The notes beneath the pieces are model-generated. The model saw only the letters and a list, made by a program, of their open reading frames with translations, did no database searches and was not told the origin of the DNA. A stretch of DNA of 64,000 nucleotides from Nanobdellota archaeon (GTDB lineage Archaea; Nanobdellota; Nanobdellia; Pacearchaeales; GW2011-AR1): contig JAHISS010000087.1 in assembly GCA_018817905.1 (NCBI GenBank), positions 985 to 64,984 on the forward strand, in the 5' to 3' direction. Positions 5,395 through 21,813 of the stretch are shown here, piece by piece; positions within the stretch are counted from its first letter, which is position 1, and each line of letters starts with the position of its first letter. The position numbers were made by a program, and so were the translations under genes.

Positions 5395-5396
5395 CG

Positions 5397-7320: not shown

Positions 7321-7357
7321 TCTGGTTTATGAGATAATCATTTGGTGCTGGTGGTGG
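7321..7357. repeat. Copy 1 of dispersed motif TCTGGTT(T/G)AT(G/A)A(G/T)ATAATC(A)TTTGG-G-rich
   Basis: 24 bp identical to 33952-33975 (TCGTCTGGTTTATGAGATAATCAT); similar copies at 36251 and 44367. Confidence 0.6.
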
Positions 7358-7379
7358 AACATATTTTTATTCAAGATAA

Positions 7380-7772
7380 TTATTTCCCAGAAACCAAAAT
7401 TTCCCCGCCGGCTTTTTTAACTTTGTCAATTGCCGAACTTGAAGCTGCGGACGCTTTTATTGTCAGCTTTTCCTTTACTTCGCCAAGTCCGAGAATCTTG
7501 TAACCCTTGAGTTCGATTTCTTTTTTACCTTTGAACTTTTCCACCAGGTCTCTCAAGTTTATTGTTTTCAGTTTTTTAGAGGGTTCTTTTCTCAAAGTTT
7601 TGTCTTTTCCAAAAGGATATTTGATTAAATTCTTTTTCTGGTCTGCTCGTTTTCCAGTTCCTGCTTTTCCAACTCCTCCCCTGTTTCCAGAACCTCTGGC
7701 TTTTTTCTTAAATCCTCTTGCAGCTGTGTGCGAACCGCGATGCCTTGTGTTTTTCTTTCTTTTTTTATTCAT
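7380..7772 (-). CDS. rpl15: 50S ribosomal protein uL15
   Basis: N-terminus KNTRHRGSHTAARGFKKKARGSGNRGGVGKAGTGKR; conserved position before secY. Confidence 0.9.
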   Translation of the reverse strand: MNKKRKKNTRHRGSHTAARGFKKKARGSGNRGGVGKAGTGKRADQKKNLIKYPFGKDKTLRKEPSKKLKTINLRDLVEKFKGKKEIELKGYKILGLGEVKEKLTIKASAASSSAIDKVKKAGGEILVSGK

Positions 7773-7947
7773 CTTCTTCCTCTGGCTGCATTGCTAAAAC
7801 ATTTTCAGCTTCTTTTTTTTCAATCATATCTTCTGGAACTTTAGCAAAACTTTCAATTGCCTGGCATTCCTCGCATTCTTGCGGAGGATACTGGCCGTAT
7901 TCGACGTTTCCGCATTCGCATTCCCACATGAAACCGTCTTTTGACAT
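7765..7947 (-). CDS. small rubredoxin-like zinc-ribbon protein (60 aa), inserted between rpl30 and rpl15
   Basis: WECECGNVEYGQYPPQECEECQ gives a CxC...CxxC knuckle pair; overlaps rpl15 by 8 nt and rpl30 by 1 nt. Confidence 0.5.
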   Translation of the reverse strand: MSKDGFMWECECGNVEYGQYPPQECEECQAIESFAKVPEDMIEKKEAENVLAMQPEEEDE

Positions 7948-8369
7948 TACAACATCCTCCTAACCAAATCATTTATTTTCTCTTTGTTGTCTCCGAGAAC
8001 TGCCTTGCTGCTTGTTCCGAAATGTTTCTTTGAGTCTATTCCTCCTCTTGGCGGATGCAGCCTGAAAAAAGATTTTAAGCCTAAATCGTTCAATGATTTT
8101 TTGGCTAATCCTTCAACAATTTTCTCAGCGCTGATTTTATCTCCAGCTTTAATCGGTTGGCCTCTTTCCTTTATTAGTTGAACAAGAGTTTCTTTGTCTA
8201 TTGTTCCGTATGCGACATAGCTCCTTATTTTTTTTAAGAGTTTCAGATTTTCTTTAGTTGGCGCAAGAAGAACTGCAGAATACTTTCTTCTAAGTTTAAT
8301 TCTGAACAGGGTTTCTGTTACTTCCTTTGGAATTTCTACTTGGCCTGATATTCTTATTGTTAAAATCAT
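7947..8369 (-). CDS. rpl30: 50S ribosomal protein uL30
   Basis: MILTIRISGQVEIPKEVTETLFRIKLRRKYSAVLL is archaeal L30-like; operon position. Confidence 0.85.
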   Translation of the reverse strand: MILTIRISGQVEIPKEVTETLFRIKLRRKYSAVLLAPTKENLKLLKKIRSYVAYGTIDKETLVQLIKERGQPIKAGDKISAEKIVEGLAKKSLNDLGLKSFFRLHPPRGGIDSKKHFGTSSKAVLGDNKEKINDLVRRML

Positions 8370-9187
8370 TATGTCCTCATCTTTGTTGTTTTTTCAAGAG
8401 CATTGACGCATGCTTTTGCTAAATTGAAAGTTGTTTTTGTTTGTCCCTGCGTTTTTGTGTAGGCGTCTTTGATTCCTGCGAGTTTAAGGATTTTTTTGCA
8501 TTCGTCTCCTGTGACCAAGCCGGTTCCGCGAGGCGCTGGCCAGAGAGTAATTTTTACACTGCCTGATTTTCCCTGAACTTTGAACGGAACTGTGTGGGGA
8601 ATGCTGTCTTCTTTTTCATCTTCTGGAGATTCAAAACCAAGGTTAATTTTTATGAGGTTTAGTTTTGAGTTCCTAACTGCTTTTTCCCTTGCTGGCAGGG
8701 TTTCGCTTGCCTTGCCAAAACCAACTCCAACATGTCCTTTTTTATCTCCAGCAACTGCCATTGCAGAAAATGAAACAACATTTCCCTCCTGGGTTTTCTT
8801 TTGCGTTTGCCTCCACGCTCTTCTCTTGCCTCCGCCAAATTTTCCCTTTGCCTGACCAATTAAAATCAGGTCTGTCTCAATATTCAAAAGCGAATCAACA
8901 ATTTCTGATTCTAAAATCTTTTTTCCTTTTTCTAAAATCTTGTCAATGTCTTTTTCTTTTTTTTCTTTTACTAATCTTCCAAGATTGGTTTTTGGAACCC
9001 ATGCAGCTAACAGCACCTTAGGATCTTCCCTCTGAAATCTCCCATCTCTCCGGCCGTATTGTTTTTTTGAATTTTCTGTTTTTTCTGGCTCTTCTGTTTT
9101 TTCTGTTTCTTTCTCTAACTTTACAACTTCTTCTGGTGTTGCTTCAACAAGATCTTTTGGTTCGTTTTTTGTTTCTTTTTCTGCCAT
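8369..9187 (-). CDS. rps5: 30S ribosomal protein uS5 (with KE-rich N-terminal extension)
   Basis: S5 dsRBD/C-terminal motifs; operon position. Confidence 0.9.
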   Translation of the reverse strand: MAEKETKNEPKDLVEATPEEVVKLEKETEKTEEPEKTENSKKQYGRRDGRFQREDPKVLLAAWVPKTNLGRLVKEKKEKDIDKILEKGKKILESEIVDSLLNIETDLILIGQAKGKFGGGKRRAWRQTQKKTQEGNVVSFSAMAVAGDKKGHVGVGFGKASETLPAREKAVRNSKLNLIKINLGFESPEDEKEDSIPHTVPFKVQGKSGSVKITLWPAPRGTGLVTGDECKKILKLAGIKDAYTKTQGQTKTTFNLAKACVNALEKTTKMRT

Positions 9188-9188
9188 T

Positions 9189-9509
9189 TTATTTTCCGTG
9201 CCTCCTTAATACTGCGTCTCTTTCTGAATGTCCTTCATCCTTAGGGCCATAGCCCCTATCTCGATTCGGATGTAAAAACGTTACTTTTCCATTATGTATT
9301 GGGTAGGAAATAACATCAATTGCTTGAGTTCCAGGGACCCTTCTAAGAAATCTTGCTCTTTCCGAATGACTCCTATAATTTCCTTCATGTGTCTCACTAA
9401 AAAACAATTCCAATTCTGATCCTTGATCGGGCTGAACTAACACCCTATCTTCAGACACGAGGTTTCTTGCCTTTAACGTTTGGCTTGATTTTATTTCTAA
9501 AGTTGCCAT
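9189..9509 (-). CDS. hypothetical protein (106 aa) inserted between rps5 and rpl18
   Basis: Clean ORF exactly filling the 323-bp gap with 1-nt spacers; not Lys-rich; no r-protein match. Confidence 0.45.
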   Translation of the reverse strand: MATLEIKSSQTLKARNLVSEDRVLVQPDQGSELELFFSETHEGNYRSHSERARFLRRVPGTQAIDVISYPIHNGKVTFLHPNRDRGYGPKDEGHSERDAVLRRHGK

Positions 9510-9510
9510 T

Positions 9511-9984
9511 TTATAACTTTTCCTTTACCTCCTTAAAGATACTTTTAAGCTTTTCGTTAGCTTCAATTCTTTCTGTTTTTGGCAAGGTGCTTTCTTTATG
9601 CGGGATTTTCAAACCAGCGTCTATTGCTCCTTTTACAAGTGCGTAGATTCTTGAACCGTGAATGTTTCTGTTCAGACCGAAATCTAAAATCGCTTCGTTG
9701 ACTTTTGTCTTTATGTTTTTTACTAGGAGGAATCCGGTTAAGTAAGCGGCTGGAAGAGATTTCAAACTTCCTGATTTTTCTTTTGGCCAACCTTTTTCAA
9801 GGAGTTCCTGCGAGCTCGCCTTTGCTACAACTTTGTCCTGAGCTATTTGCGATTCAACAATCTGAGCGATAATGTAATGATTTGTTTTTCTTACGACTAA
9901 GCGCGGTTTTTCTGACTTCAACATTGTAAATCTTGCTTTGTAGTCTGTTTTTGCTTGTTTTCGGCGACGTTTTAGAGTTTTCAC
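9511..9984 (-). CDS. rpl18: 50S ribosomal protein uL18
   Basis: RRRKQAKTDYKARFTMLKSEKPRLVVRKTNHYIIAQIV. Confidence 0.85.
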   Translation of the reverse strand: MKTLKRRRKQAKTDYKARFTMLKSEKPRLVVRKTNHYIIAQIVESQIAQDKVVAKASSQELLEKGWPKEKSGSLKSLPAAYLTGFLLVKNIKTKVNEAILDFGLNRNIHGSRIYALVKGAIDAGLKIPHKESTLPKTERIEANEKLKSIFKEVKEKL

Positions 9985-10397
9985 TTTTCTTCCTCCTGCA
10001 TTTCAGCTAACCTTTCTTTCATGTGAGCCAAACTTCTGAAGTCTGAGGCCCGGATTTCTTTCCGCAATTTGTAATAATCTTCCAGCGAAATTTTCTTTCT
10101 CTTCTTCAAGTTTGAAAGATAAGTTCTTAATTTTCTCGTCATAGTAACATAATCTTGTTTTCTTGTCTTCACTGTTTTCTTTACTGAACCAGCACGTCTT
10201 CTTGTTTTTCTTTTTTTGATTTTTCTCCGTCCCTTTTTTTCCTCTATGAAAATCGCGCCAGATTCTTTCAAATCTTTCATGTCTTGTTTTGTTATTGCTT
10301 CTTTTAATTCTGCCAAGCGCGCGGTGTTGAAAGAGATTCTGTTCTTTCCTGTCTTTAACGCCCTTGCAGCTAACTCTTTTTTCTTTTCAAGTTTCAT
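9981..10397 (-). CDS. rpl19e: 50S ribosomal protein eL19
   Basis: KKELAARALKTGKNRISFN ... KKGRRKIKKRKTRRRAGSVKK. Confidence 0.9.
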   Translation of the reverse strand: MKLEKKKELAARALKTGKNRISFNTARLAELKEAITKQDMKDLKESGAIFIEEKKGRRKIKKRKTRRRAGSVKKTVKTRKQDYVTMTRKLRTYLSNLKKRKKISLEDYYKLRKEIRASDFRSLAHMKERLAEMQEEEK

Positions 10398-10696
10398 GCT
10401 GTCCCCCGATGTTGTTCGACGAATTCTGAAACTGTCTTAAATTCAGGATGTGTTTCAGGAATTCTGCTCGTTGAAGTAAGGGATGGTTCTAAAACATCTA
10501 AGCCCGATAAATTATAAACACTTCTTAAAAATGCTAACTGACCCTCCACTGGGACTGGTTTTGGATCAATTATTTCTACAACCGTTCCCTTGGTTTTATA
10601 CACTAATCCTTTTGGGATCCTTTGACAAAAAACTTTTTCTCCAGGGTGATAAGATCCTCTAACTTTCAGTTCCCTTGGTCTTGTTTGCGTTGTCAT
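10394..10696 (-). CDS. hypothetical protein (100 aa, starts MTTQT) inserted between rpl32e and rpl19e
   Basis: 4-nt ATGA overlaps on both sides; no r-protein match. Confidence 0.45.
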   Translation of the reverse strand: MTTQTRPRELKVRGSYHPGEKVFCQRIPKGLVYKTKGTVVEIIDPKPVPVEGQLAFLRSVYNLSGLDVLEPSLTSTSRIPETHPEFKTVSEFVEQHRGTA

Positions 10697-11043
10697 TTCT
10701 TCTCCCCCTTAACATTTAAAATTTTTATTTTCTTTTCAGTTGCTTCTTTTATAAGCTCCAACTTTTTCTTTGCTCCGACTTTTGCGAGAATTGCTCCCTG
10801 GTTTTTTCCCAAATCGTTTAGTTCTTTTCTGTTGTGGACTAAAACAACTTGGAGATTTTGGATTTTTCCTGCTTGTTTTTTTGGTTTTTTGTATCCAACT
10901 GAAACTGTTTTTGCATGACCATGCATGTTTAGCCTCATCTTACTGTCGCGGCCCTTTGGTCTTCGCCATTTTTGCAGTTTCTTTCTTCGCTTTCCGATTC
11001 TTGAATGTCTGTCTGCTTCCTGCCTGATGAATTTTTTTTTCAT
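10693..11043 (-). CDS. rpl32e: 50S ribosomal protein eL32
   Basis: RIGKRRKKLQKWRRPKGRDSKMRL ... HAKTVSVGYKKPK. Confidence 0.85.
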   Translation of the reverse strand: MKKKFIRQEADRHSRIGKRRKKLQKWRRPKGRDSKMRLNMHGHAKTVSVGYKKPKKQAGKIQNLQVVLVHNRKELNDLGKNQGAILAKVGAKKKLELIKEATEKKIKILNVKGEKK

Positions 11044-11585
11044 TATAATCCCCTCCCTGGTTTTGAAACCAAGTGAATACCGTCTTGGAAAATTCTTCGG
11101 TCCCTGCCTCGAACCTTGGTAGCTTTTTCAATATTTGCCATTGTTTTTCCTGCAGCTTCTCGGTCATTAGAAGAAATAGTTACCTTCTGCCCCTTAATTT
11201 GAACTTCGACATTTGGAAAAATTTTTGCATGTCTTGGAGTTTTCTCCCCTAAAAAATTGTTTATTGCGAGTTGATTTCCTTCGACTTTCAAAGTCATCGG
11301 AAAATGAACATTCACTGCCTCTAACTCGTAAACAAACTTCTCTCCTAAACCTCTAAAAAGATTTTTGATGTGCGCGATTTGCGACTTGATGATTTTGTAT
11401 TGGTTTTTGTTTCCTTTTTTACAACTGATGACAATTTCGTTTCCCTGAAGTTGTATTTCTATCTGCGGAATGTTCATATCTCTTGAAATTGAATCAGAAC
11501 CCTTTGTGCAAGTTAGTTTTTTATTTTCATAAGTGCAAGAAATGCCTTCGGGTATTTCAACTTTTTCTAGGATTTGGTGTTTCAT
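11043..11585 (-). CDS. rpl6: 50S ribosomal protein uL6
   Basis: Two-domain L6 pattern (IPEGISCTYENKKLTCTKG ... VQIKGQKVTISSNDREAAGKTMANI). Confidence 0.9.
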   Translation of the reverse strand: MKHQILEKVEIPEGISCTYENKKLTCTKGSDSISRDMNIPQIEIQLQGNEIVISCKKGNKNQYKIIKSQIAHIKNLFRGLGEKFVYELEAVNVHFPMTLKVEGNQLAINNFLGEKTPRHAKIFPNVEVQIKGQKVTISSNDREAAGKTMANIEKATKVRGRDRRIFQDGIHLVSKPGRGL

Positions 11586-11586
11586 C

Positions 11587-11952
11587 TTATGCTGCGCTCC
11601 TATCTTTCTTACAGGATAATTCTAAAACTGCTTGATAGGGTTTATAGAAACGTTCACGAACAATTTCAATTAATGGTTTGTAATAATCTGGAAAAACAGG
11701 TCTTTCTGTTTTTGGATTAATGCCATATTTTCTAAAATCTGATTGGGCCAAGGGCATGGCTTCAAAAGCTGTGTGATACTCTCTCATCAAAACGTTTGTT
11801 TTACCAGGGTTGCCAATTACCTGTTCTGCCCTGTCTAAATGTGTATGTATAAAATTTGCAACAACTAAAAATTTAGCCATGTCTCCGCTTATAGCCCGTT
11901 GTTCCCAAAGTTTTCCTATTGTGACAAGAGAAGGATTTAATTTTTTAGCCAT
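11587..11952 (-). CDS. hypothetical protein (121 aa) inserted between rps8 and rpl6
   Basis: 1-nt gaps on both sides; no r-protein match. Confidence 0.45.
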   Translation of the reverse strand: MAKKLNPSLVTIGKLWEQRAISGDMAKFLVVANFIHTHLDRAEQVIGNPGKTNVLMREYHTAFEAMPLAQSDFRKYGINPKTERPVFPDYYKPLIEIVRERFYKPYQAVLELSCKKDRSAA

Positions 11953-11953
11953 C

Positions 11954-12328
11954 TTAATAAAAATAAGCTATCAAGCTTCCTCCGATGTTTTTATCCTGGG
12001 CTGTTTGGTGAGTCATGAGTCCTTGCGATGTTGAAATGATTAAAAATCCGATGTTTTTTGCCGGCAGGTATCTCTTGACGTATTTTTCAATTTCGTCGAC
12101 TTTTACCATGAAGCGCGGCTTGATTGCGTTGCAGTTGTTTAATTTTCCAAGTTCAATCTTTAGGTTTGTTTTGTCGGTTTTGTAACTTTTTACATATCCT
12201 TTTAATTTCGCGATTGCTAAAACAGAACTGAGAAGTTTTGAATGTCTTTTTACTTCTACGATTTCCTTTCCAGCTCTTCGGATGTTCATCATCTGGTTTA
12301 GCGCGTCTGCTACTACATCTTGTGACAT
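11954..12328 (-). CDS. rps8: 30S ribosomal protein uS8
   Basis: MSQDVVADALNQMMNIRRAGKEIVEV ... GFLIISTSQGLMTHQTA. Confidence 0.9.
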   Translation of the reverse strand: MSQDVVADALNQMMNIRRAGKEIVEVKRHSKLLSSVLAIAKLKGYVKSYKTDKTNLKIELGKLNNCNAIKPRFMVKVDEIEKYVKRYLPAKNIGFLIISTSQGLMTHQTAQDKNIGGSLIAYFY

Positions 12329-12329
12329 T

Positions 12330-12560
12330 TTAACTATATTTTTTGAAGCCGATTTCTACTGCGATTTCTCGGAAGCAGTGTCGGCAGATGTTTAGATTAT
12401 ACTGATTGAGGTGAGCGCCGAAGCGACCGCATCTTTCGCATTTTCGCGCGGCGATTCCGGTCTTTCTTTCCTTCGGCTTGCAGTGCTTTAGGAACTTTTT
12501 CATAATTTCTGGTTTGTCCTTCAATTGCTTTGTTATTTTTTTCCAATCTGATGCTGTCAT
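12330..12560 (-). CDS. rps14: 30S ribosomal protein uS14 (type Z, zinc-binding); true start may be the internal Met at ~12503
   Basis: CERCGRFGAHLNQYNLNICRHCFRE is the CxxC...CxxC motif. Confidence 0.85.
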   Translation of the reverse strand: MTASDWKKITKQLKDKPEIMKKFLKHCKPKERKTGIAARKCERCGRFGAHLNQYNLNICRHCFREIAVEIGFKKYS

Positions 12561-12862
12561 ATTGTGTCTGCCTCCAAGATTTCCTTAAACCTTTCGAATA
12601 TTTCCATTTCTTTTTCTCCACGCAAACAGTCTGGGTGCATTGTATAAACACTATCATCTCCATTCCTACGCGATATTGTTGAGCCATCGAATAATAATTT
12701 AAAATGCGTGGTGCCGAAAACTTCGATTGATCCTTTGTTGTTGCCTGGTTTAATAAATTGATGATATGGGTATTCTCCATCAACATATTTGAATCTTTCT
12801 CCAGAAGGTCTGACTGGATACCATTCGCCCATTGCCAACTTTGGTTTTGTTTGTGTTGTCAT
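12557..12862 (-). CDS. hypothetical protein (101 aa, starts MTTQT) inserted between rpl5 and rps14
   Basis: 4-nt overlaps with its neighbours; no r-protein match. Confidence 0.45.
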   Translation of the reverse strand: MTTQTKPKLAMGEWYPVRPSGERFKYVDGEYPYHQFIKPGNNKGSIEVFGTTHFKLLFDGSTISRRNGDDSVYTMHPDCLRGEKEMEIFERFKEILEADTI

Positions 12863-13215
12863 ATTCTCCTTTGTTCACTCCTTTCAACCATGGCATACAA
12901 ATCTTGAAAGCCTATTGTTCCTTCTTCAATACCCTCACATGGACAGATTTTTCGGATGCTGAAATTACTCCCTTGATCCACTGCTGCCCAATATAGGCGA
13001 AGATATTTTTTGCGAAGTATCTTATCTGTTTGTGCGAATAGTGCTCTTGCCCCGTCTGTATCGGCCACGGTTCCAACATAGTTATATCTAACCCGCCTAT
13101 CTGGGGAAACTATTATATCTCCTTCATGTATAATGGTAATATCTATGAGGGGATTTGCTACTACTACCGCATGTTCACGATGAATTAATGGGGTTGCCGC
13201 TGTCATCTCACTCAA
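12859..13215 (-). CDS. hypothetical protein (118 aa) inserted between rpl5 and rps14
   Basis: Second of two tandem inserted ORFs in this slot; Ala/Val/Asp-rich. Confidence 0.45.
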   Translation of the reverse strand: MSEMTAATPLIHREHAVVVANPLIDITIIHEGDIIVSPDRRVRYNYVGTVADTDGARALFAQTDKILRKKYLRLYWAAVDQGSNFSIRKICPCEGIEEGTIGFQDLYAMVERSEQRRI

Positions 13216-13744
13216 CCTCTGTCTCGAAGTTTTCTTCGAGGAATTTAATTATTTCTTCAGGGGAAATTTTTTGTTTTTCTGGGAGTTTTCCTCTTTTGAT
13301 TTTTCTTCTCTTAACTCTTACTCCTGCTCTGATAAAACATGCAGTTACATTTAAACCTCTAATTCCAATTTCTCTTTGATATTCTATCCCGGGAATTTCA
13401 ATGTATTCATGGATTCCAAAAGAAAACGAGTTTTCTGCGATTTGCTTTTCGTCGAGCTCGTTGTCAACTGCGCCTAAAAGTTTTTTCAGGATTTCAAAAG
13501 CATGTTTTCCACGCAATGTCACTGATGTTCCAAGAGGTAAGTGCGGCTTCACTCCAAAGTCAGGAATTCTCCGCTTTGGTCCTGCCTTCATGATTTGCGC
13601 TTTTTTTCCTGAAATCATTTCCAAAAGTTTCTGCGACTTTTCAAGATTCGGACCTGTTGCTCCACAGCTAAGAACAACTTTCTCAAGTTTTACTTCTCTC
13701 ATTGGATTTTCTTTTTTTTCCTGGATTTGGGTTTGGGTTGTCAT
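13208..13744 (-). CDS. rpl5: 50S ribosomal protein uL5
   Basis: NPMREVKLEKVVLSCGATG ... EYIEIPGIEYQREIGIRGLNV; N-terminus MTTQTQIQ may be an extension. Confidence 0.9.
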   Translation of the reverse strand: MTTQTQIQEKKENPMREVKLEKVVLSCGATGPNLEKSQKLLEMISGKKAQIMKAGPKRRIPDFGVKPHLPLGTSVTLRGKHAFEILKKLLGAVDNELDEKQIAENSFSFGIHEYIEIPGIEYQREIGIRGLNVTACFIRAGVRVKRRKIKRGKLPEKQKISPEEIIKFLEENFETEVE

Positions 13745-14013
13745 CTTTGTCCTCCCGGACCTCTGAAATAAGCATTCGTAAATTGAATTAGTAAAATACT
13801 GTAAAGTCTCTCCATTGCATTAACTAAACCGAGATATGCCTCTTGATTCGGTGGCGATGCCAGGGTTCTTCTCATTTCTCCAAAACGTTGATTAATTCTG
13901 TCCCTTGCTGCGAAAAAACCTTTAATGTTATTTCCTTCTTCGGCATATCTTCTTTGTTCGCTTACATCTTTCAATACTTCTTCTGTGAAAGATGCGATTT
14001 TTGCTAAACTCAT
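13741..14013 (-). CDS. hypothetical protein (90 aa) inserted between rps4e and rpl5
   Basis: 4-nt overlaps on both sides; helical, Arg-rich. Confidence 0.45.
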   Translation of the reverse strand: MSLAKIASFTEEVLKDVSEQRRYAEEGNNIKGFFAARDRINQRFGEMRRTLASPPNQEAYLGLVNAMERLYSILLIQFTNAYFRGPGGQR

Positions 14014-15021: not shown

Positions 15022-15022
15022 T

Positions 15023-15322
15023 TTATGCTGCAGTCCCGCTACTTCTAATGAAATGACTAACTACTATAAGTTGGATTTCCAAGGCATTTTGAAGGTGCCC
15101 GTTAATTTCCCTTAAATGATTAACATTTGAAACATCTATGTTTTCGACAATGGCTAAGTGTTCACCAATTCTCTCATTATAATACCTTGCTCCCACTGTA
15201 TTACCAGATATTATTGCAGTCGCTAATTCATCTACGTAGCGCTTAAGAGCTTGGCTGGACCTTTTAGCCACTAAATAATTCCTTCTTTCAGAATCCTGAC
15301 TTAATCTAATTGTTGTATTCAT
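15023..15322 (-). CDS. hypothetical protein (~99 aa; the ORF extends to 15385 but the Met at 15322 abuts the rpl14 stop) inserted between rpl14 and rpl24
   Basis: Clean frame; the upstream part of the ORF overlaps rpl14, so the internal start MNTTIRL is preferred. Confidence 0.4.
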   Translation of the reverse strand: MNTTIRLSQDSERRNYLVAKRSSQALKRYVDELATAIISGNTVGARYYNERIGEHLAIVENIDVSNVNHLREINGHLQNALEIQLIVVSHFIRSSGTAA

Positions 15323-15323
15323 T

Positions 15324-15749
15324 TTACAAAACATACTGAGCAATCTTGGCGACAGATGGCCAACGCTCCTGAACCTCCCTTGCAACTGGACCTTTAATTT
15401 GAGTTCCTTTTGGATTGCCTTTGTCGTCTTTCATTAAGGCTACGGCGTTGTCTTCGAAGCAGACTCTCTCACCTGTTAGTCTCCGGTAAGGTTTCTTTTG
15501 GCGGATTACAACTGCATCAAACACTTGGCCTTTCATGTCCGGCTTTCCTTTTCTGACAGAGACTTTTACCCAGTCCGATATTTTAGCATACTGCTGTCTT
15601 TTCTTTGTTGTTTTTCCGCCTTTTACTCCTGTGATTCTGACAATTCTCGCGCCGCTGTTGTCTGAAGCAAGAACCTGACTGCCAATGTTTAAACCGCGCG
15701 TTGCTCTTGCACTAATCGCCTTTCCGAATATTTTTTTTGATTTTGTCAT
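15324..15749 (-). CDS. rpl14: 50S ribosomal protein uL14
   Basis: RGLNIGSQVLASDNSGARIVRITGVKGG ... GQVFDAVVIRQKKPYRR. Confidence 0.95.
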   Translation of the reverse strand: MTKSKKIFGKAISARATRGLNIGSQVLASDNSGARIVRITGVKGGKTTKKRQQYAKISDWVKVSVRKGKPDMKGQVFDAVVIRQKKPYRRLTGERVCFEDNAVALMKDDKGNPKGTQIKGPVAREVQERWPSVAKIAQYVL

Positions 15750-16057
15750 TATTCGATTTCCTCCAAAGCTTTCTTAATTAAAGGATAAAGCGGATGACGC
15801 CTGTTTGCCCAGTAATGATTGTGACTCTTCTGAACAGAAGAGAACGTTCCATTTGGAAAAAGGACAAAACTATAAACCGGAATACAGCCAATAGTGTGGA
15901 AATTCTCCGTGTCCACTACGATAAGACTCCCGTCTTCCATGCCTGCGTATCGTCCTTCTATCCCTGAAGCCTCTCCGATAACTACATTATCTCCAATCTT
16001 AGTGTTTCTCGCATCTTCTGCTGTTCTTACTAACAATGCGGGTCTTCGTGGACTCAT
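15749..16057 (-). CDS. hypothetical protein (102 aa) inserted between rps17 and rpl14; weak Sm/Rpp29-like flavour only
   Basis: IGDNVVIGEASGIEGRYAGMEDGSLIVVDTEN loosely recalls the barrel region of RNase P Rpp29, which normally sits between SUI1 and S17 (a slot empty here). Very tentative. Confidence 0.4.
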   Translation of the reverse strand: MSPRRPALLVRTAEDARNTKIGDNVVIGEASGIEGRYAGMEDGSLIVVDTENFHTIGCIPVYSFVLFPNGTFSSVQKSHNHYWANRRHPLYPLIKKALEEIE

Positions 16058-16398
16058 TCTCCCCCTCCCTCTTTTTTCCTAATCTTCTCAACAACAATGA
16101 AATGAATCATCTTGCTCAATGGCCTGCATTCCTGGACTTTGATTAAATCACCAATATGGATTTCATGGGCAAGTTCTTCTGGCAAACGGGCGTGGATTCT
16201 TGTTTTCTTTTTGAGAAAGCGCTCGTATTTTTTAATTTTAACTGTGCGCTCGAATTCTATGGCGACTCGGGTTGGGAATTTCCTTGTGACAACTCCTTGA
16301 AAAATCCTGCCGCGGGTTGAGACTTTAGTTCTGACTAAGTTTTCTGTTTTCTTTTTTGTGGATTTCTCTATCTGTTTTTTCTTTGACGTTTCTGTCAT
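16054..16398 (-). CDS. rps17: 30S ribosomal protein uS17
   Basis: GRIFQGVVTRKFPTRVAIEFERTVKIKKYERF. Confidence 0.9.
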   Translation of the reverse strand: MTETSKKKQIEKSTKKKTENLVRTKVSTRGRIFQGVVTRKFPTRVAIEFERTVKIKKYERFLKKKTRIHARLPEELAHEIHIGDLIKVQECRPLSKMIHFIVVEKIRKKEGGGE

Positions 16399-16424
16399 TT
16401 TCTCTTTGCTTTGCGATGTGCGAG

Positions 16425-16721
16425 TTAATCGCTGATGGACTCTTCGGGAAAGCCTAGCTTCACAAGAATCGGCCGGAGCTTTTTCTTGTGGTCGCCTTGC
16501 AGTTCGATGACGCCGTTTTTAGACGTGCCGCCGCATGCCAGTTCTTCTTTCAGGCGTTTTCCTGTTGCCTTGATGTCCACGTGTTTGTCAAACCCCTCGA
16601 CAAGTGTTATTTTTTTTCCGTATCTCCTTGTCTCGGTGCGCACTTTTATGTGCTGTTCGCTTTTAGCGATTTCTTCAAACACATCGGTTTCTGTTGGTAA
16701 ACCGAATTCGTTTGAATCCAT
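16425..16721 (-). CDS. translation initiation factor SUI1 / aSUI1 (eIF1 homolog)
   Basis: IKVRTETRRYGKKITLVEGF ... LKEELACGGTSKNGVIELQGDHKKKL. Confidence 0.9.
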   Translation of the reverse strand: MDSNEFGLPTETDVFEEIAKSEQHIKVRTETRRYGKKITLVEGFDKHVDIKATGKRLKEELACGGTSKNGVIELQGDHKKKLRPILVKLGFPEESISD

Positions 16722-16942
16722 TATTTCTTTTTCAACCCATCCTCTTTCAAGGATTTGTTGAATTTTTCTGATTTCATGAATGTATTTAATCGTGAAATTG
16801 CCCTTTTAATCTCTTTGGTTTTAGCATTTGTCTTGTTTGCAGCGACATTTGCTCTGACCAGTTCCATTTTCAAATCTTTTAACTTGCTATCTCTCTCCCT
16901 TGCTGTCATCTTTGCTATTTCTTTTGATTTTAGGATTGCCAT
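16721..16942 (-). CDS. rpl29: 50S ribosomal protein uL29
   Basis: MAILKSKEIAKMTARERDSKLKDLKMELVRANVA. Confidence 0.85.
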   Translation of the reverse strand: MAILKSKEIAKMTARERDSKLKDLKMELVRANVAANKTNAKTKEIKRAISRLNTFMKSEKFNKSLKEDGLKKK

Positions 16943-16948
16943 TTTATG

Positions 16949-17254
16949 CTATTGAACCTCCCCAGGTATATTACTTCTCCTTCTTAGTTCAGTTAATTCT
17001 TGTTCTAACTCTCCTAATGAAGACATCAATTCTACTCTCATTTGACTGGGCGCTTTTTGTGATAAATGATCTGTGGGAATGCAGGGAAGTTCTTGGCTAA
17101 TGAATTGATACACCTCTACATCCAAACTTGCCAATTGGTCAAGGAGTCCTGAATATCCTGGCAAGCCAACAGTTTGAACACCTTGCACTCTCTTTGTAAG
17201 ACTCTGGGTTTGTTTATAGAGTTCTTCGTATACTTCTCGGCCTTGTGCAATCAT
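16949..17254 (-). CDS. hypothetical protein (101 aa) inserted between rps3 and rpl29
   Basis: 4-nt overlap with the rps3 start codon region; helical, Gln/Leu/Glu-rich. Confidence 0.45.
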   Translation of the reverse strand: MIAQGREVYEELYKQTQSLTKRVQGVQTVGLPGYSGLLDQLASLDVEVYQFISQELPCIPTDHLSQKAPSQMRVELMSSLGELEQELTELRRRSNIPGEVQ

Positions 17255-17973
17255 TCTTTTTCCTCCTCAACTTTCTTAGGCGCTTTCTTTTTGACTGTCT
17301 TCTTATCTGTCTTTTTCTTAACTTCGGTTTCTTCTTGCTGGTTCATTTCTTCTAAAGTAACCTTTATTTTTTGTCTGAGAGCTTCATCAATTTTTATTTG
17401 GTCGTGAAGTTCTGCTTCTGGTCTGAGAATAGCGACTTTGACACCGACAACTCCGGCGATTGTTGTTGCCTGGCTTTGGGCCCTGTTGACTACTTTTGCG
17501 GTATCGCCGGTTTTTTTCAAATAACCCTGGGTGAATCTCCAGGTTCTGGCTCTGTCGCTTGGCAGTTTTCCTGACAAAACAATTTCTGTTCCTAAAGCTC
17601 CTGCTTTCATTATCTGTTGTAATGTTCTGTAAGCGATAACTTTGAATTTTAATGAGCCTCTTCTTTCAAGTAACAAAGCGATGTCATCTGCAACTAATTG
17701 CGCGTCAAGCACTGGCTGCGTAATTTCTACAATTTCAATGTGCGGATTGTCGAGGTTGAATCTTTTTTTAAGTATTCTTGTCAGCTCGTCTATTTTTTCG
17801 CCTTTCCTTCCAATTACTAATCCTGGACGCGAAGTGAAAACTTTTATTTTTTCTCCTACTGGCGTATACTCAATGCTGACGTCGCTGATTTTTCCCTTCC
17901 CCAAACTATTTTTGATGTAATCTCTTACTCTGAACTCATCTTTCTTAAACGCGACAAATCTTTTTTCTTCCAT
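17251..17973 (-). CDS. rps3: 30S ribosomal protein uS3
   Basis: KH domain (GRKGEKIDELTRILKKRF) plus S3 C-terminal domain. Confidence 0.95.
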   Translation of the reverse strand: MEEKRFVAFKKDEFRVRDYIKNSLGKGKISDVSIEYTPVGEKIKVFTSRPGLVIGRKGEKIDELTRILKKRFNLDNPHIEIVEITQPVLDAQLVADDIALLLERRGSLKFKVIAYRTLQQIMKAGALGTEIVLSGKLPSDRARTWRFTQGYLKKTGDTAKVVNRAQSQATTIAGVVGVKVAILRPEAELHDQIKIDEALRQKIKVTLEEMNQQEETEVKKKTDKKTVKKKAPKKVEEEKE

Positions 17974-17974
17974 T

Positions 17975-18415
17975 TTATGCGAAAACCTCCCTTAGCACTC
18001 TTAAAGCGTTATCTCTTTTTTTCCAATCTGGGTTCGTTACTCTGAGATAAGACCTGCCGTGACCTTCATCAGTAAAATGTTCTACGGTGCAATCTCTCAC
18101 ATGATAAATAAGGGAGGTTGAATCATGATATGCGCTATGATCTGGACTTGTAATGGGGGCACTAAAGTCTGTATCGCCAAAGCAGAGTATAATCGGATTA
18201 TCAATTCTGCGTTGAGGACTGGCTAATTTGGCTAATGCATTTCCTAAGTTTGCATTAGCACTTGTCACAAATTCTAACATTTCATGCATTTCAGGAAAAT
18301 CCCCCGCATCAAAGATATATAAATCAAACTCGTCGTCTCTGGCTGAACCGATTTTCCATTCAAACCCCCCAATACGATTTTGTCCAATTAACTTTTGTTG
18401 TGTTGCTTTTGCCAT
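17975..18415 (-). CDS. hypothetical protein (146 aa) inserted between rpl22 and rps3
   Basis: 1-nt overlap/gap; Asp/His-rich; no r-protein match. Confidence 0.45.
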   Translation of the reverse strand: MAKATQQKLIGQNRIGGFEWKIGSARDDEFDLYIFDAGDFPEMHEMLEFVTSANANLGNALAKLASPQRRIDNPIILCFGDTDFSAPITSPDHSAYHDSTSLIYHVRDCTVEHFTDEGHGRSYLRVTNPDWKKRDNALRVLREVFA

Positions 18416-19029
18416 TATTCCTTTCCTCCTTGTTTCTTAGGAAATTCCTTTGCTTTTAGAATAATGTTTGTCCTCTTTGATAATGTGCCGCCGCGACGCA
18501 TTTGTCTTCGCGCCCAAGAAGCAGAGGCGATGGAAATTCGCGTGGTTTCAAGTTCAAGTCCGTTTGTTATCGCGTTGCCTTTCAAAGCTTTCAAAAGATT
18601 AATAAAATATCCTGATGCTTTAATCGGGTATCTGCCTCGCTCCATGCTCCCTTTTCTGTGCGGCGTTTCTCCCCTGAACGGAACTGCCTGCTTAAACTTG
18701 GAAACTTTCTCAACGTCAGAAATTGCCTGGTCTATTTTTTTGTTTTTGATAAATCTGCAAAGATACACTGAATGTTTTTTCGAAATCGGCAATCCTGCGC
18801 CTCTGGCAATTGCTTCTTCTTTCTTAACTTTAGGAATTTCTTTCTTTTTTTCTTCCTTCTTCTCTGACTTTTCTTCAACTTTATCTTCCAATTTTTCTTC
18901 AGCTGTTTCTTTTTTTTCTTGCCTCATCTTTTCTTCTATTTCTTTGGTTTTTTCTTTGTCGACTGGCAACGGCTTTGCTTCTATCTTTTTCTTTTTTTCT
19001 TCTGCTGGTTGTTTATTTTCTTCTTTCAT
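18415..19029 (-). CDS. rpl22: 50S ribosomal protein uL22 (long KE-rich N-terminal extension)
   Basis: LPISKKHSVYLCRFIKNKKIDQAISDVEKV ... GRYPIKASGYFINLLK. Confidence 0.85.
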   Translation of the reverse strand: MKEENKQPAEEKKKKIEAKPLPVDKEKTKEIEEKMRQEKKETAEEKLEDKVEEKSEKKEEKKKEIPKVKKEEAIARGAGLPISKKHSVYLCRFIKNKKIDQAISDVEKVSKFKQAVPFRGETPHRKGSMERGRYPIKASGYFINLLKALKGNAITNGLELETTRISIASASWARRQMRRGGTLSKRTNIILKAKEFPKKQGGKE

Positions 19030-19030
19030 T

Positions 19031-19447
19031 TTATTTCTTCATTGCTCTCGATGATTTAGTTGCTCCGATTCCTGCGCTGCCGTGGTTTACTCTTGTTCGC
19101 GTTGGTGCGAATTCTCCCAACCGGTGTCCAATCATTTCAAAAGTTATTAGAACTTCTTGGAAATTTTTTCCGTTGTGAACGCCGATTGTCAAACCAACAA
19201 GTTTGGGAACTATGACTATGTCTCTTAGATGTGTCCTGATTTTTTTGCCTTTTGCAACTTTTCTATCGCATCTTTTTATGAATTTTTCAATTGAATCAAA
19301 AGTTCTTAAGACAGTTCTCCTGCTGCGTGAAGGAAGGAACTTGGCTATCTCTCTTGCATCTAGGGTTTTTAATTCTTCTATGGGCCTGCCTCTGTAAATT
19401 TGTTCTCTTCGCTTTACTTTTTCTTTTTCTTTCTTTTTGTGTGCCAT
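19031..19447 (-). CDS. rps19: 30S ribosomal protein uS19 (ORF extends to 19489; start trimmed to the Met abutting rpl2)
   Basis: GRPIEELKTLD ... IVPKLVGLTIGVHNGKNFQEVLITFEMIGHRLGEFAPTR. Confidence 0.9.
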   Translation of the reverse strand: MAHKKKEKEKVKRREQIYRGRPIEELKTLDAREIAKFLPSRSRRTVLRTFDSIEKFIKRCDRKVAKGKKIRTHLRDIVIVPKLVGLTIGVHNGKNFQEVLITFEMIGHRLGEFAPTRTRVNHGSAGIGATKSSRAMKK

Positions 19448-19448
19448 T

Positions 19449-20150
19449 TTATTTCCTACAACCTGTTCTTCTTGGACGAACATGCCCAACTTTTCTTCCT
19501 GGGGGAGCGTTACGTTTTGCTATCTTTTGTTTGACTCTCTTGCCTCGGCCAGAACCAAACGGGTGGTCTACTGCGTTAGCTTTTACTGCGGAAGTTCTCG
19601 GCCATAATTTTGATTTTGCTTTCATCTTGTAATACTTTTTCCCAGCTGTGACAAAAGGCTTTGCGACGCGGCCGTCACCGGCAATTCTTCCGATTGTTGC
19701 GCGACAGTTCTCGTTGAGGGTTACAACTTTCTTATTGGGCATGGTGACTGTTACTTCTGTGTTTTCTAATTTTTTTGAGAGTATTGCTGACGAGCCAGCT
19801 GTTCGCATCATTTTTCCTCCGTCTCCAGGATTTTTCTCTATGTTAAAAATATGAGTTCCTGGAGGTATTTTGTTTAATGGTAAAATGTTTCCTTCTCCGG
19901 GACTGGTGTTAATGGAAATTTTTTGCCCGACAAATGCGCCGTTGAACGCAGCGTTGTAGAAAGTTTTGTTCTTGATTTGGACTTTCATCAATGGAGCAGA
20001 ATGTGCGGCAGAATGGATGATTGCGATAATCTCTGCCTCGCCTTGTGCTTCGACTGGAGGATAAGCAATCTTTTTGTTGAACGCTTTCTTTCTGACTCTG
20101 TAAGTTAAACTTCCCTTGCCCCGCGCTTGTTGAATTATTCGTTTTCCCAT
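19449..20150 (-). CDS. rpl2: 50S ribosomal protein uL2
   Basis: HPFGSGRGKRVKQKIAKRNAPPGRKVGHVRPRRTG is the L2 C-terminal signature. Confidence 0.95.
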   Translation of the reverse strand: MGKRIIQQARGKGSLTYRVRKKAFNKKIAYPPVEAQGEAEIIAIIHSAAHSAPLMKVQIKNKTFYNAAFNGAFVGQKISINTSPGEGNILPLNKIPPGTHIFNIEKNPGDGGKMMRTAGSSAILSKKLENTEVTVTMPNKKVVTLNENCRATIGRIAGDGRVAKPFVTAGKKYYKMKAKSKLWPRTSAVKANAVDHPFGSGRGKRVKQKIAKRNAPPGRKVGHVRPRRTGCRK

Positions 20151-20151
20151 T

Positions 20152-20499
20152 TTATTCTCTTCTTCTAAGATTTACTTCTACCATGTCATCAAACAACTCC
20201 TTGTATCTTACATCACTTTGGTCTAAGGTGATATATCTACCACCAAGAGTTGTAACTATTCCATTCTTCCCAAATCTAAGCCCATTTTCAGACACGATAA
20301 ATAAATAAATGGAATCTCTTGTGCGTGGGAAAGCAAACGAGAAGTCTCCTTCTTCTGAACCTCGATATTGGGCTAGTGTTCCCCCAGCAGACAAGCCATA
20401 GCCGTCTATTCTTACTACTTTTTTAACCGCCCGATGCAGCTCATCTAAACTATTTACTTGTGTCTCTATATCTTCTATATCCCTTGCTTCTTGTGCCAT
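20152..20499 (-). CDS. hypothetical protein (115 aa) inserted between rpl23 and rpl2
   Basis: 1-nt overlap with the rpl23 stop and 1-nt gap to rpl2. Confidence 0.45.
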   Translation of the reverse strand: MAQEARDIEDIETQVNSLDELHRAVKKVVRIDGYGLSAGGTLAQYRGSEEGDFSFAFPRTRDSIYLFIVSENGLRFGKNGIVTTLGGRYITLDQSDVRYKELFDDMVEVNLRRRE

Positions 20500-20741
20500 T
20501 ATATCATCCCCAGCTTTGTCGCGACGTCGATGGCTGGGTTCTCCTTTGCAAATTTTACATAAGCATATTTTTTGTTATTGCGAAGCAAGGTCCTGACTTT
20601 TTCAACTTTCACTTTGAATGTTTCTTCTACTTCTTTCTTGATTTCTTCTTTTGAGAATTTTCTCCCAACCTGGAACAAGAGAGTGTTGTCTATGTCCACC
20701 ATTTTTACTGCTTTTTCTGAAGTTATTGGTTTGAGTATCAT
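20499..20741 (-). CDS. rpl23: 50S ribosomal protein uL23
   Basis: ILKPITSEKAVKMVDIDNTLLFQV ... KVKVEKVRTL. Confidence 0.9.
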   Translation of the reverse strand: MILKPITSEKAVKMVDIDNTLLFQVGRKFSKEEIKKEVEETFKVKVEKVRTLLRNNKKYAYVKFAKENPAIDVATKLGMI

Positions 20742-21520
20742 GATGTTTCTTCCTTCTTTTCATTCCCAAGTTCTTTAATTGCTTTGTGAGTGTAAATTGT
20801 CAATCTTCCCAACGGATACAAATCAGCAATGGAAATATCGCCAACTGTCTTCACTTCAACGCCAGAAAACTTCACGTTTTCTTTTTCTGAGATTATCAAA
20901 AGTGCGCCTGCGCTGGATTTGTATTTCCTTCCGCGAAGTTTTCCTTTGCCGGCTCTAACTGCTTTTTTCTTAAATGCGAGAGCAAAACTTTTCCCAAGAA
21001 TATTTTTCATGGCTTGTGCAAGTTCTTTTGTTTTTTTTGGCAGCGACTCTATGACAAAAGGAATGTTTTCAATTTTTTCAAGAGAAAAATATCTTTTCAG
21101 GACAAAGTCTTTTTGCGCAGTCGCGGCAATCGCAGAGTTCATCGCTAACTGGATTTCTTTTTTGTTAATTTTCTTTTCCTTGCCAATTCCTTTTGGGGGA
21201 TGTGCTCTTCGGCCGCCTCTTGAACCTGGGATGTTTGCGCCAACCCAAATAAACTGAGTTCCCCGTCTCGACATTGTTTTTCTTGGAACGCGAGAGATTC
21301 CTCGACCGTAGTGTCCTTTCCAGTCATGTCTTTTGTGAGATATTGTTCCTGAAGCTGACTGACGAAGCCCTGCCCGGGGATTTGAAGAATACGGCTGGAT
21401 GAATTTGTCTGCTTCGAAATATTTTTGGACGATGTCTTTTCTCACGCGGATTTCAAATATCTTGGGTAATTCTATTTGGGATTTTTTCTTTCCGTCGCTT
21501 GAATAAAGTGTTGTTTTCAT
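20738..21520 (-). CDS. rpl4: 50S ribosomal protein uL4 (ORF extends to 21628; start trimmed to MKTTLYSSDGKK)
   Basis: Archaeal L4 N-terminus, and RGGRRAHPPKG. Confidence 0.85.
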   Translation of the reverse strand: MKTTLYSSDGKKKSQIELPKIFEIRVRKDIVQKYFEADKFIQPYSSNPRAGLRQSASGTISHKRHDWKGHYGRGISRVPRKTMSRRGTQFIWVGANIPGSRGGRRAHPPKGIGKEKKINKKEIQLAMNSAIAATAQKDFVLKRYFSLEKIENIPFVIESLPKKTKELAQAMKNILGKSFALAFKKKAVRAGKGKLRGRKYKSSAGALLIISEKENVKFSGVEVKTVGDISIADLYPLGRLTIYTHKAIKELGNEKKEETS

Positions 21521-21524
21521 TTTG

Positions 21525-21812
21525 CTAAATATATTGAATATTTCCCCCTGCTTCCAATCTTGCAGATATTTCTGGAATGGACTCAAGGGTTCCAACCCTT
21601 TCGACTGTTTTTCCAGTTTCTGATTCATAAACTCGAGTTAGATAGTCACATGAAGCTAAAACATGAACTCGCATAATCACTAATCTGTCATCAAGTGTCT
21701 GCGCTTTTTCACAATCGCCATTTTCTCTAGCACCCTTAGCAGCCTTTCTAAATAAGTCATGCTTTTTCTTCCAATAAATTACTCTTTCTGCAGCTTTTTT
21801 TAATTCGCTCAT
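21525..21812 (-). CDS. hypothetical protein (95 aa) inserted between rpl3 and rpl4
   Basis: ATG 1 nt after the rpl3 stop; ends 4 nt before the rpl4 start. Confidence 0.45.
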   Translation of the reverse strand: MSELKKAAERVIYWKKKHDLFRKAAKGARENGDCEKAQTLDDRLVIMRVHVLASCDYLTRVYESETGKTVERVGTLESIPEISARLEAGGNIQYI

Positions 21813-21813
21813 T

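Follow-up and report, generated by a model that had tools for sequence, protein, structure and literature searches.

The DNA considered here, referred to as the window, is a stretch of 64,000 nucleotides of contig JAHISS010000087.1 (GenBank assembly GCA_018817905.1) from a Nanobdellota archaeon of the Pacearchaeales, and our subject is the ribosomal protein operon that it carries on the minus strand. Thirteen small open reading frames (ORFs) are interleaved with the genes of this operon. A preliminary description of the sequence had located them, and all are present on the minus strand in the ORF list. We call these inserts I01 to I13 and name the junction, or slot, which each occupies after its two flanking genes.

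7380-22755, minus strand: the L3...L15 ribosomal protein operon, 22 ribosomal protein genes and SUI1 assigned by Pfam, the scaffold for the inserts
21525-21812, minus strand: I01, 95 amino acids, slot L3/L4; orphan, no homologue among 160 related loci
20152-20499, minus strand: I02, 115 amino acids, slot L23/L2, the slot most often occupied in relatives
17975-18415, minus strand: I03, 146 amino acids, slot L22/S3
16949-17254, minus strand: I04, 101 amino acids, slot S3/L29; orphan
16425-16721, within the operon: SUI1
15749-16057, minus strand: I05, 102 amino acids, slot S17/L14; orphan
15023-15322, minus strand: I06, 99 amino acids, slot L14/L24; orphan
13741-14013, minus strand: I07, 90 amino acids, slot S4e/L5; remote homologues elsewhere
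13732-13744, minus strand: start of L5, ATGACAACCCAAA, the third copy in the window of the start motif ATGAYAACNCAAA
12859-13206, minus strand: I08, 115 amino acids, first of two cassettes in slot L5/S14; alternative TTG start at 13215
12557-12862, minus strand: I09, 101 amino acids, second cassette in slot L5/S14; starts ATGACAACACAAA (MTTQT)
11587-11952, minus strand: I10, 121 amino acids, slot S8/L6; remote homologues elsewhere
10394-10696, minus strand: I11, 100 amino acids, slot L32e/L19e; starts ATGACAACGCAAA (MTTQT)
9189-9509, minus strand: I12, 106 amino acids, slot L18/S5; orphan
7765-7947, minus strand: I13, 60 amino acids, slot L30/L15; zinc ribbon of the form CxC...CxxC with an acidic tail

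The ribosomal protein genes follow the canonical archaeal order (L3, L4, L23, L2, S19, L22, S3, L29, SUI1, S17, L14, L24, S4e, L5, S14, S8, L6, L32e, L19e, L18, S5, L30, L15). The preliminary description had extended this order to SecY, which is in fact separated from L15 by 2.4 kb; it was right in noting that the SUI1/S17 slot contains no RNase P Rpp29 gene, and this holds for the window and for every relative. The operon spans 15.4 kb, as against 11.0-11.3 kb in relatives without inserts. As had been claimed, the inserts are co-oriented with their neighbours and abut them tightly: at each of the 25 insert boundaries the genes either overlap by 8, 4 or 1 nucleotides or lie 1-6 nucleotides apart. 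Eight are 4-nucleotide ATGA overlaps (S3/I04, S17/I05, S4e/I07, I07/L5, I08/I09, I09/S14, L32e/I11 and I11/L19e), four are 1-nucleotide overlaps of the form TAATG (L23/I02, L22/I03, I05/L14 and L30/I13), one is an 8-nucleotide overlap (I13/L15) and the remainder are the short gaps. For I08 the ORF itself stands, while the longer version starting at 13215 is less likely than that starting at ATG 13206; the latter lies 1 nucleotide past the L5 stop and is also the NCBI call.

A GGAGG-type site lies 8-20 nucleotides upstream of most genes, inserts included, and sits within the 3′ end of the preceding gene, so that the ribosome-binding site of a ribosomal protein gene which follows an insert is carried by that insert. 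With gaps of at most 6 nucleotides or overlaps there is no intergenic room for insert promoters, and judging by this layout all thirteen would be promoterless, co-oriented ORFs served from upstream. Experiments in archaea have established that overlaps of the ATGA type and spacings of a few nucleotides couple translation by termination-reinitiation (PMC6728339, PMC10666635), and the boundary layout of the inserts fits predicted coupling of this sort.

The thirteen ORFs are real coding frames. Each of I01-I12 is open only in frame 0 of the six frames, and I13 has one additional open antisense frame; the probability of remaining open after shuffling is at most 1.2e-3 for each of I01-I12 and 0.012 for I13 (summed log10 P = -43). 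A codon model trained on the non-ribosomal genes of the window is positive in frame 0 only and gives the inserts 0.14-0.44 bits per codon, compared to 0.21 for the ribosomal protein genes and 0.32 for the training set; the codon usage of the inserts is native. This score lies above a stop-free random null in 13/13 ORFs (z 1.1-3.6, mean 2.3). GC content falls from the first to the third codon position (0.50, 0.40, 0.28), the value at the third position being below that of the ribosomal protein genes. GCA_018815165.1 (NCBI), ERZ27247128 (ENA) and the Logan assemblies of SRR27458548 and SRR6514274 show this gene order at 99.98-100% identity, and part of the arrangement was also recovered in SRR10598177 and SRR10598178. 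Thus, assembly chimerism, for which the preliminary description had asked for a check, is refuted by five independent assemblies (NCBI, ENA and three Logan runs) that agree at 99.98-100%.

A scan with L14 of one genome per GTDB species yielded 80 clusters (73-88% L14 identity), all of them from archaea of the DPANN group labelled Pacearchaeota or Woesearchaeota. A metagenome scan added 80 further clusters, giving 160 related ribosomal clusters for comparison, which are referred to by three-digit handles such as L157. The relatives carry about 0-16 junction ORFs per cluster and use the same junctions repeatedly; many have gaps of 200-700 nucleotides at these junctions and others have none. In the 80 species there are 283 junction ORFs of at least 50 amino acids, and a broader extraction gave a median length of 95 amino acids. 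They are very diverse: 194 of 223 BLAST clusters are singletons, and about 90% of the junction ORFs have no Pfam domain. The types matched by the other ~10% include DEDD/RNase T exonuclease, NUDIX, MazG, Pol-beta nucleotidyltransferase, DUF5680, DUF5678, a YhaV-like toxin, reverse transcriptase and rubredoxin-like zinc ribbons; a few match defence- or toxin-type models (YhaV-like, Pol-beta nucleotidyltransferase, DEDDh, reverse transcriptase) and two match a homing-endonuclease model. In content this is similar to the pools of accessory and conflict genes found in mobile elements, a similarity which for the orphans of the window is circumstantial.

The preferred slots in the relatives are L23/L2 (44%), L14/L24 (40%), S17/L14 (32%), L3/L4 (30%) and L4/L23 (25%), and the L29/SUI1 and SUI1/S17 slots are essentially never occupied. 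Such gap-based figures are upper bounds, since unaligned N-terminal extensions of L22 and S5 inflate the S19/L22 and L18/S5 values. With 12 occupied slots the window ranks third of 46 complete clusters. What might have seemed a peculiarity of one genome is therefore a general and dynamic property of the Pacearchaeota-type ribosomal operon, as the clusters of its relatives demonstrate. Three related species have a diversity-generating retroelement in the L24/S4e slot (L024:9427-10950, L027:11081-13183 and L015:11252-13740). Its variable and template repeats of 66-92 nucleotides are 76-80% identical, with mismatches at template adenines, and the variable repeat lies at the C-terminus of an ORF of ~250 amino acids which adjoins reverse-transcriptase-like ORFs. 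In one sub-lineage the S3-L29-SUI1 block sits between S5 and L30 instead of between L22 and S17 (L065:17685-19281, L070:10631-12242, L076:12883-14122), and ribosomal genes themselves can thus move between junctions.

None of the thirteen ORFs of the window matches Pfam, PHROGs or PADLOC. No Pfam ribosomal domain occurs in any of them, nor does any match a Pfam ribosomal, RNase P or translation-factor family, which bears out the claim that they are not ribosomal proteins. They show no similarity to each other or to the rest of the window. I01-I12 gave no tblastn match in the 80 GTDB clusters, and their products are neutral to acidic (K+R 0.09-0.18), compared to 0.17-0.33 in the basic ribosomal proteins. 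It would be wrong to treat the thirteen as one class, as had been done: I13 is a resident gene, I02 and I03 have orthologues in the same slot in distant relatives, and I07, I10 and I11 have remote homologues in other slots.

More than 40 related loci have I13 in this slot (33-71% identity), and tblastn hits always fall between L30 and L15. Its relatives match the rubredoxin-like family PF21349, and its nonsynonymous divergence (dN, 0.19-0.28) is near that of the ribosomal proteins (0.17-0.21). I13 is consequently a conserved resident of the lineage and stands outside the variable set; its description as an extra ORF did not survive the comparison with relatives. Despite the acidic tail it is a candidate lineage-specific translation-associated protein.

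The same-slot homologue of I02 occurs in the metagenome locus L157 (2094-2438; phmmer E 3.4e-8, 32% amino acid identity), with a dN of 0.86 versus 0.27 for the flanking ribosomal proteins. I03 has a same-slot orthologue of 129 amino acids in a more distant relative (L152, L169-L171) at 39-43% identity; the C-terminal ...ALxVLxEVFA is conserved between I03 and the L152 orthologue, and dN is 0.57 versus 0.22 for the flanks. An AlphaFold model of I03 built from two sequences has a mean predicted local distance difference test score (pLDDT) of 68.7 and a predicted template modelling score of 0.67, with a core at pLDDT 76-88; the predicted structure gave no significant fold match. A word-indexed search of 5.8 billion protein clusters with I03 returned I03 itself only, and a profile of I03 and L152 returned itself and the known L152 orthologue only. 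Remote homologues of I07 lie at S14/S8 in L029 and L007 (phmmer E 6.7e-5, Smith-Waterman z 10.1, profile iteration) and those of I10 at L14/L24 in L052 and L034 (Smith-Waterman z 7.1-7.7, L052 being recruited in the first profile iteration). I11 has a full-length remote homologue at S14/S8 of L008 (28% identity over 97 amino acids, z 10.5), and a full phmmer search of 1.84 billion representative proteins found I11 itself only. I09 is weakly similar to the L5/S14 inserts of L023, L024 and L157. Viral origin was not supported: IMG/VR returned nothing for the I03 profile or for I10, and a NUDIX-like insert family from the relatives has generic viral relatives only. I03 also holds an 11-nucleotide anti-Shine-Dalgarno sequence, AACCUCCCUUA, which pairs with the S3 Shine-Dalgarno in the minimum-free-energy fold of 17971-18132; by masking this site it would make S3 initiation dependent on translation of I03. 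This hairpin was rejected as a candidate, the fold not being significant (z = -0.76).

The most direct evidence on how inserts come and go is provided by closely related strains and species. Over 12-17 kb, locus L147 matches L159 and L050 at 96% identity or more; what sets it apart is one cassette of 294 nucleotides (98 codons) at S17/L14, bordered on both sides by ATGAAA and with ATGA overlaps at both ends. L152 and L169/L170 agree fully in the I03 orthologue and almost fully in L2 and S19, and have unrelated cassettes in L2/S19: between ...GAGAAAATGA and ...AAAATAAAATGGCT there is a soluble ORF of 108 amino acids in one case and a hydrophobic ORF of 68 amino acids in the other, with breakpoints at ATGA and TAAAATG. 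Presence or absence differs at five slots or more between L024 and L027 (85.5% nucleotide identity), each time by one exact ORF unit, and the junction repeats found on both sides are 4-11 nucleotides long (ATGA, ATATAAAATG, ATGACAGCAA, AAATGAA or TAARATGAAA). This duplication at the junction is significant. For 199 inserts, with gene starts in the same locus as controls, the run of identity around the insert ATG and the downstream-gene ATG averages 5.6 nucleotides versus 4.8 in the controls (P = 2e-6); runs of at least 9 nucleotides make up 11% versus 3.8% and those of at least 12 nucleotides 3.5% versus 0.5%, the longest being 17. In the window, the I08 start ATGACAGCAgca, read in the sequence, duplicates the S14 start ATGACAGCAtca, and the start context of I12, ATAAAATGGCA, is that of the downstream S5 gene. 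An apparent insertion distinguishing L007 from L095 was discarded as the artefact of a 1-nucleotide difference.

A further observation concerns L29. Two independent contigs among L003, L004 and L005 end exactly at window position 16907, inside L29, and L005 is 100% identical up to that position and continues as a variant ~80% identical. Position 16907 is a strain branch point or a recombination breakpoint.

Inserts also change slots and lineages. One family of seven members occupies three slots (L2/S19, L22/S3 and L23/L2), an exonuclease family is found in L4/L23 and L32e/L19e, and a family of 128 amino acids in L4/L23 and S17/L14. Members of the last from two different lineages share 88% identity, compared to 71% for the ribosomal proteins of these lineages, which indicates recent lateral transfer. 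The locus L157 (1700-14650, Ga0209542_10002029) presents an extreme case, in which at least ten junctions hold head-to-tail mini-ORFs of 24-60 codons. These belong to at least two repeat families with at least seven copies, up to 97% identical, and each starts with ATGATAACNCAAA and ends with GGAGGTTTTGGTT and then an ATGA overlap. A 10-bp stem, TCATTTGCGA/TCGCGAATGA, is present in one variant. A viral link for the L157 element was suggested by a 20-mer matching two viral contigs and was not retained: in the one examined (L174) the match lies inside an unrelated coding region.

Some inserts share a start motif. Exact copies of ATGAYAACNCAAA occur only three times in the 64-kb window, at the start of L5 listed above, at I09 (12850-12862) and at I11 (10684-10696). 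In 2.1 Mb of loci, 27 copies of its more general form ATGAYAACNCAA (M-T/I-T-Q) lie on the operon strand and a single copy on the opposite one; beyond the three copies of the window there are 24 further sites in related loci. The motif is always at a start codon and heads unrelated junction ORFs and, in some genomes, also L5 and L22. It may serve either as a core for recombination or as a leader optimised for initiation.

The inserts evolve rapidly. In close pairs the ratio of nonsynonymous to synonymous divergence (dN/dS) is about 0.03-0.15 for most ribosomal protein genes, 0.2-0.3 for enzyme-like inserts, and 0.87 (L065/L067), 0.73 (L024/L027), 0.87 (L080/L083) and 0.45 (L039/L041) for small orphan inserts. 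The L065/L067 insert has an amino acid identity of 32%, compared to 94-100% for the ribosomal proteins, and a dS of 0.79, compared to 0.2-0.3 in the flanks. The divergent segment begins exactly at the L23 stop, and the high dS together with this sharp left breakpoint suggests replacement of an allele rather than divergence in place. At saturating distance, the dN of I02, I03, I07 and I11 is 2.6-3.7 times that of ribosomal proteins. The amino acid composition of the inserts is intermediate between the native proteome and random-codon expectation. Arginine (8.3%; null 9.0%, genome 3.6%) and histidine (2.8%; null 2.7%, genome 1.1%) are close to the null, and aspartate, glutamate and alanine are enriched and cysteine and tryptophan depleted, as in real proteins.

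Our best reading of these data is that I01-I12 are weakly constrained accessory mini-genes from a large and hyper-diverse pool present in DPANN archaea of the Pacearchaeota/Woesearchaeota type. We lean, by no great degree, towards the view that they are promoterless ORF cassettes which recombine at stop/start junctions while preserving predicted translational coupling. A cassette would enter, leave or be exchanged exactly at the stop/start junction between two ribosomal protein genes. The site of recombination would be the junction motif, which is ATGA or else TAA-N-ATG together with the opening codons of the gene downstream, and a short direct repeat of 4-17 nucleotides would be left behind. 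The inserted ORF would then initiate at the old junction, borrowing the Shine-Dalgarno sequence and stop codon of the upstream gene, and would end in a new Shine-Dalgarno sequence and stop/start overlap for the downstream gene, leaving the chain of termination-reinitiation along the essential operon unbroken. Expression from the operon promoter would come at no cost in regulatory DNA. Of the options raised in the preliminary description, hitch-hiking accessory proteins or laterally acquired cargo fits best, given rapid gain, loss and swapping among relatives, the remote homologues at other junctions and the family with 88% versus 71% identity. The insert proteins may act in conflict or symbiosis. 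Among relatives, these slots contain a diversity-generating retroelement with its variable protein, DEDD exonucleases, NUDIX and MazG enzymes, a nucleotidyltransferase and a YhaV-like toxin.

Several points weigh against the cassette interpretation. Presence/absence polymorphism was not seen in the window's own species. Neither a recombinase nor an attachment-site structure or terminal repeat was detected within or beside the inserts of the window, so that we infer the mechanism of insertion from footprints only; the actual translation and coupling of the inserts and their function are inferred as well. Finally, dN/dS near 1 and a partly random-like composition suit function-less translated DNA as much as fast-evolving effectors.

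This last point leads to an explanation which we regard as unlikely, though worth weighing: the inserts could be translated spacers or proto-genes, selfish or neutral DNA whose peptides are function-less and in which nothing is selected apart from an open frame to the next start. Selection would keep the frame open, as the loss of coupling through a nonsense or frameshift mutation would hit an essential gene downstream. The dN/dS of 0.45-0.9 in small inserts whose frames stay open and the orphan status of most inserts are as this predicts, and so are arginine, histidine and glutamine frequencies at random-codon expectation, unlike those of the native proteome, and a log-likelihood ratio of -0.015 per residue, versus +0.065 +/- 0.033 for native genes. 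The L157 junctions, filled with repeated mini-ORFs of 24-60 codons, resemble pure coupling-preserving filler. However, I02 and I03 keep 32-43% identity and conserved motifs with their same-slot orthologues at a distance where dS is saturated and neutral sequence would be unrecognisable. The codon score over the stop-free null in all thirteen ORFs, the protein-like enrichment of Asp/Glu/Ala and depletion of Cys/Trp, and the predicted folding of the I03 core also argue for proteins, and a burden of 26% in operon length would be hard to keep without benefit in a streamlined genome. Ordinary homologous recombination, in which conserved ribosomal protein genes serve as homology arms and import foreign alleles along with all that lies between the arms, without any junction-specific process or cassette, strikes us as improbable. 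The flanks are conserved enough for exchange between lineages, and the L065/L067 pair speaks in its favour: the divergent segment ends ~76 nucleotides inside the insert and not at its 3′ boundary, and an insert dS above that of the flanks is expected of an imported allele. The strain switch of L005 within L29 at 16907 is of the same kind. Yet exchange between flanks cannot produce four of the observations made here, namely the strain-level swaps in which flanks are identical up to ATGA/TAAAATG with unrelated sequence between them, the clean 98-codon indel with its ATGAAA repeat, the homologous families in different slots and the repeated elements at many junctions of a single operon.

Very little probability attaches, for the set as a whole, to the idea that the inserts encode, at the place of need, ribosomal, ribosome-associated or biogenesis proteins specific to the lineage. 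Operon membership, apparent co-translation and the fixed slot and ribosomal protein-like rates of I13 agree with such a role, which is plausible for I13 only. I01-I12 are absent from the closest relatives, inserts vary in presence between near-identical strains of related species, and the products of I01-I12 are not basic as ribosomal proteins are; a dN of 2.6-3.7 times that of ribosomal proteins and the lack of a Pfam ribosomal domain point in the same direction. The suggestion of novel ribosome-associated factors can therefore be kept for I13 and is unlikely for the other twelve, which are patchy among close relatives, non-basic and high in dN. An artefact, whether an assembly chimera or spurious ORF calls, has a negligible probability in view of the five concordant assemblies, the ORF statistics and codon scores and the similar architecture of about 160 related loci from many studies.

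The cassette interpretation invites comparison with known systems. Like integron cassettes, the inserts are promoterless single-ORF units, extremely diverse and mostly without function by annotation, arranged head-to-tail in one orientation behind a resident upstream promoter and subject to fast gain, loss and reshuffling. In contrast to integron cassettes they are spread over many stop/start junctions inside an essential operon instead of forming one array, and their boundaries are start and stop codons with predicted coupling preserved. No attC-type inverted repeats flank any insert, the stop/start motif being the only shared boundary sequence, and the Pfam annotations of the called genes in the window include no integrase of the IntI type, the only transposase being IS200-like Y1; an attI site is likewise missing. 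An origin from IS200/IS605 or a derivative finds no support in the inserts, which are without terminal hairpins; the TnpA-like gene (6428-6913) lies outside the operon. Nor is there a diversity-generating retroelement at the locus: no template/variable pair with adenine-specific mismatches occurs in 7000-23000 and no reverse transcriptase in the window. Among toxin-antitoxin and anti-phage defence systems the inserts of the window match no PADLOC or Pfam model.

Phages, too, have small variable genes lying exactly between conserved syntenic genes, namely morons, which usually come with a promoter and a terminator, and free-standing genes for homing endonucleases, which have HNH, GIY-YIG or LAGLIDADG domains. 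The inserts are likewise small and variable between close relatives; unlike these genes they have no promoter space and no such nuclease domain, none of the thirteen matching an HNH, GIY-YIG, LAGLIDADG or His-Cys box homing endonuclease in Pfam or PADLOC. Rickettsia palindromic elements are selfish, recognisable repeats inside genes, tolerated as translated sequence in reduced genomes. The mini-cassettes of L157 resemble them in being multi-copy and frame-preserving. The inserts of the window are separate and mutually dissimilar ORFs, and multi-copy in-frame repeats of this or of the miniature inverted-repeat transposable element type were found in L157 and not among the thirteen.

The archaeal S10-spc array has non-ribosomal passengers of its own (SUI1, RNase P Rpp29, SecY, Adk and Cmk), which are ancient, conserved and fixed in position. 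The inserts are also non-ribosomal genes among ribosomal protein genes, but I01-I12 are orphan, variable and slot-hopping, and I13 alone is passenger-like, within this lineage only. Coupled archaeal gene pairs offer a parallel for the boundaries, the inserts having ATGA overlaps or few-nucleotide spacings at every one (Huber et al. 2019, PMC6728339; PMC10666635); these reports concern coupling between native genes and do not describe coupling junctions as insertion sites for foreign ORFs. ORFan genes can lie next to native genes and be transcribed from the native promoter, and such genes are reported to join an operon far more often at its ends than in its interior (Price, Arkin & Alm 2006, PMC1480536). 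Appended ORFans and the inserts are both orphan and ride a native promoter; the present case differs in having up to 12-16 internal insertions, in the best conserved of all known operons, and turnover at the strain level. Orphan genes on native promoters are already known, and we rate the inserts as promoterless hitch-hiking cassettes. That they constitute a distinct class of mobile, coupling-preserving promoterless cassettes which target stop/start junctions, part of them marked by a ATGAYAACNCAAA 5′ end, is possible, and we advance it tentatively. If true, the ribosomal operon of an entire DPANN order would serve as a highly expressed and hypervariable site for fast-evolving proteins of symbiosis or defence, some of them diversified by retroelements.

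The S10-spc array, a textbook example of frozen gene order, serves as a block of phylogenetic markers and helps to gauge the completeness of metagenome-assembled genomes. Within a large group of ultra-small archaea it would instead be a hotspot where orphan mini-genes are gained, swapped and lost with codon precision, and variable ORFs interleaved in DPANN ribosomal operons are not described in the full-text literature searched. A new route of gene gain in streamlined genomes would follow, with stop/start junctions as insertion sites and coupling as the means of expression, as would a natural system in which to follow how orphan genes arise and decay when bound by a simple rule (to stay open and to end at the next start) and a short list of candidate highly expressed proteins that could mediate DPANN-host or DPANN-virus interactions. 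Pipelines based on concatenated ribosomal protein markers, and binning by synteny, need to allow for as much as ~40% of additional sequence in this operon that varies from strain to strain.

Some features of the window lie outside the insert set. L22 (18415-19029) and S5 (8369-9187) have long N-terminal extensions of low complexity, rich in lysine and glutamate, which are variable among relatives. No Rfam families or tRNAs were found in the window. The segment of ~2.4 kb between L15 and SecY (4971-7379; SecY itself is 3573-4970) includes an IS200-like Y1 transposase gene on the minus strand (6428-6913; PF01797, E 2e-22) and two plus-strand ORFs without assigned role (5119-5394 and 5397-6263), and is a mobile-element insertion at that junction. 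Toxin-antitoxin-type genes (PIN, ParE, HicA) are scattered in the flanking genome, at 1881-2249, in the 38224-39294 region and at 61345-61680.

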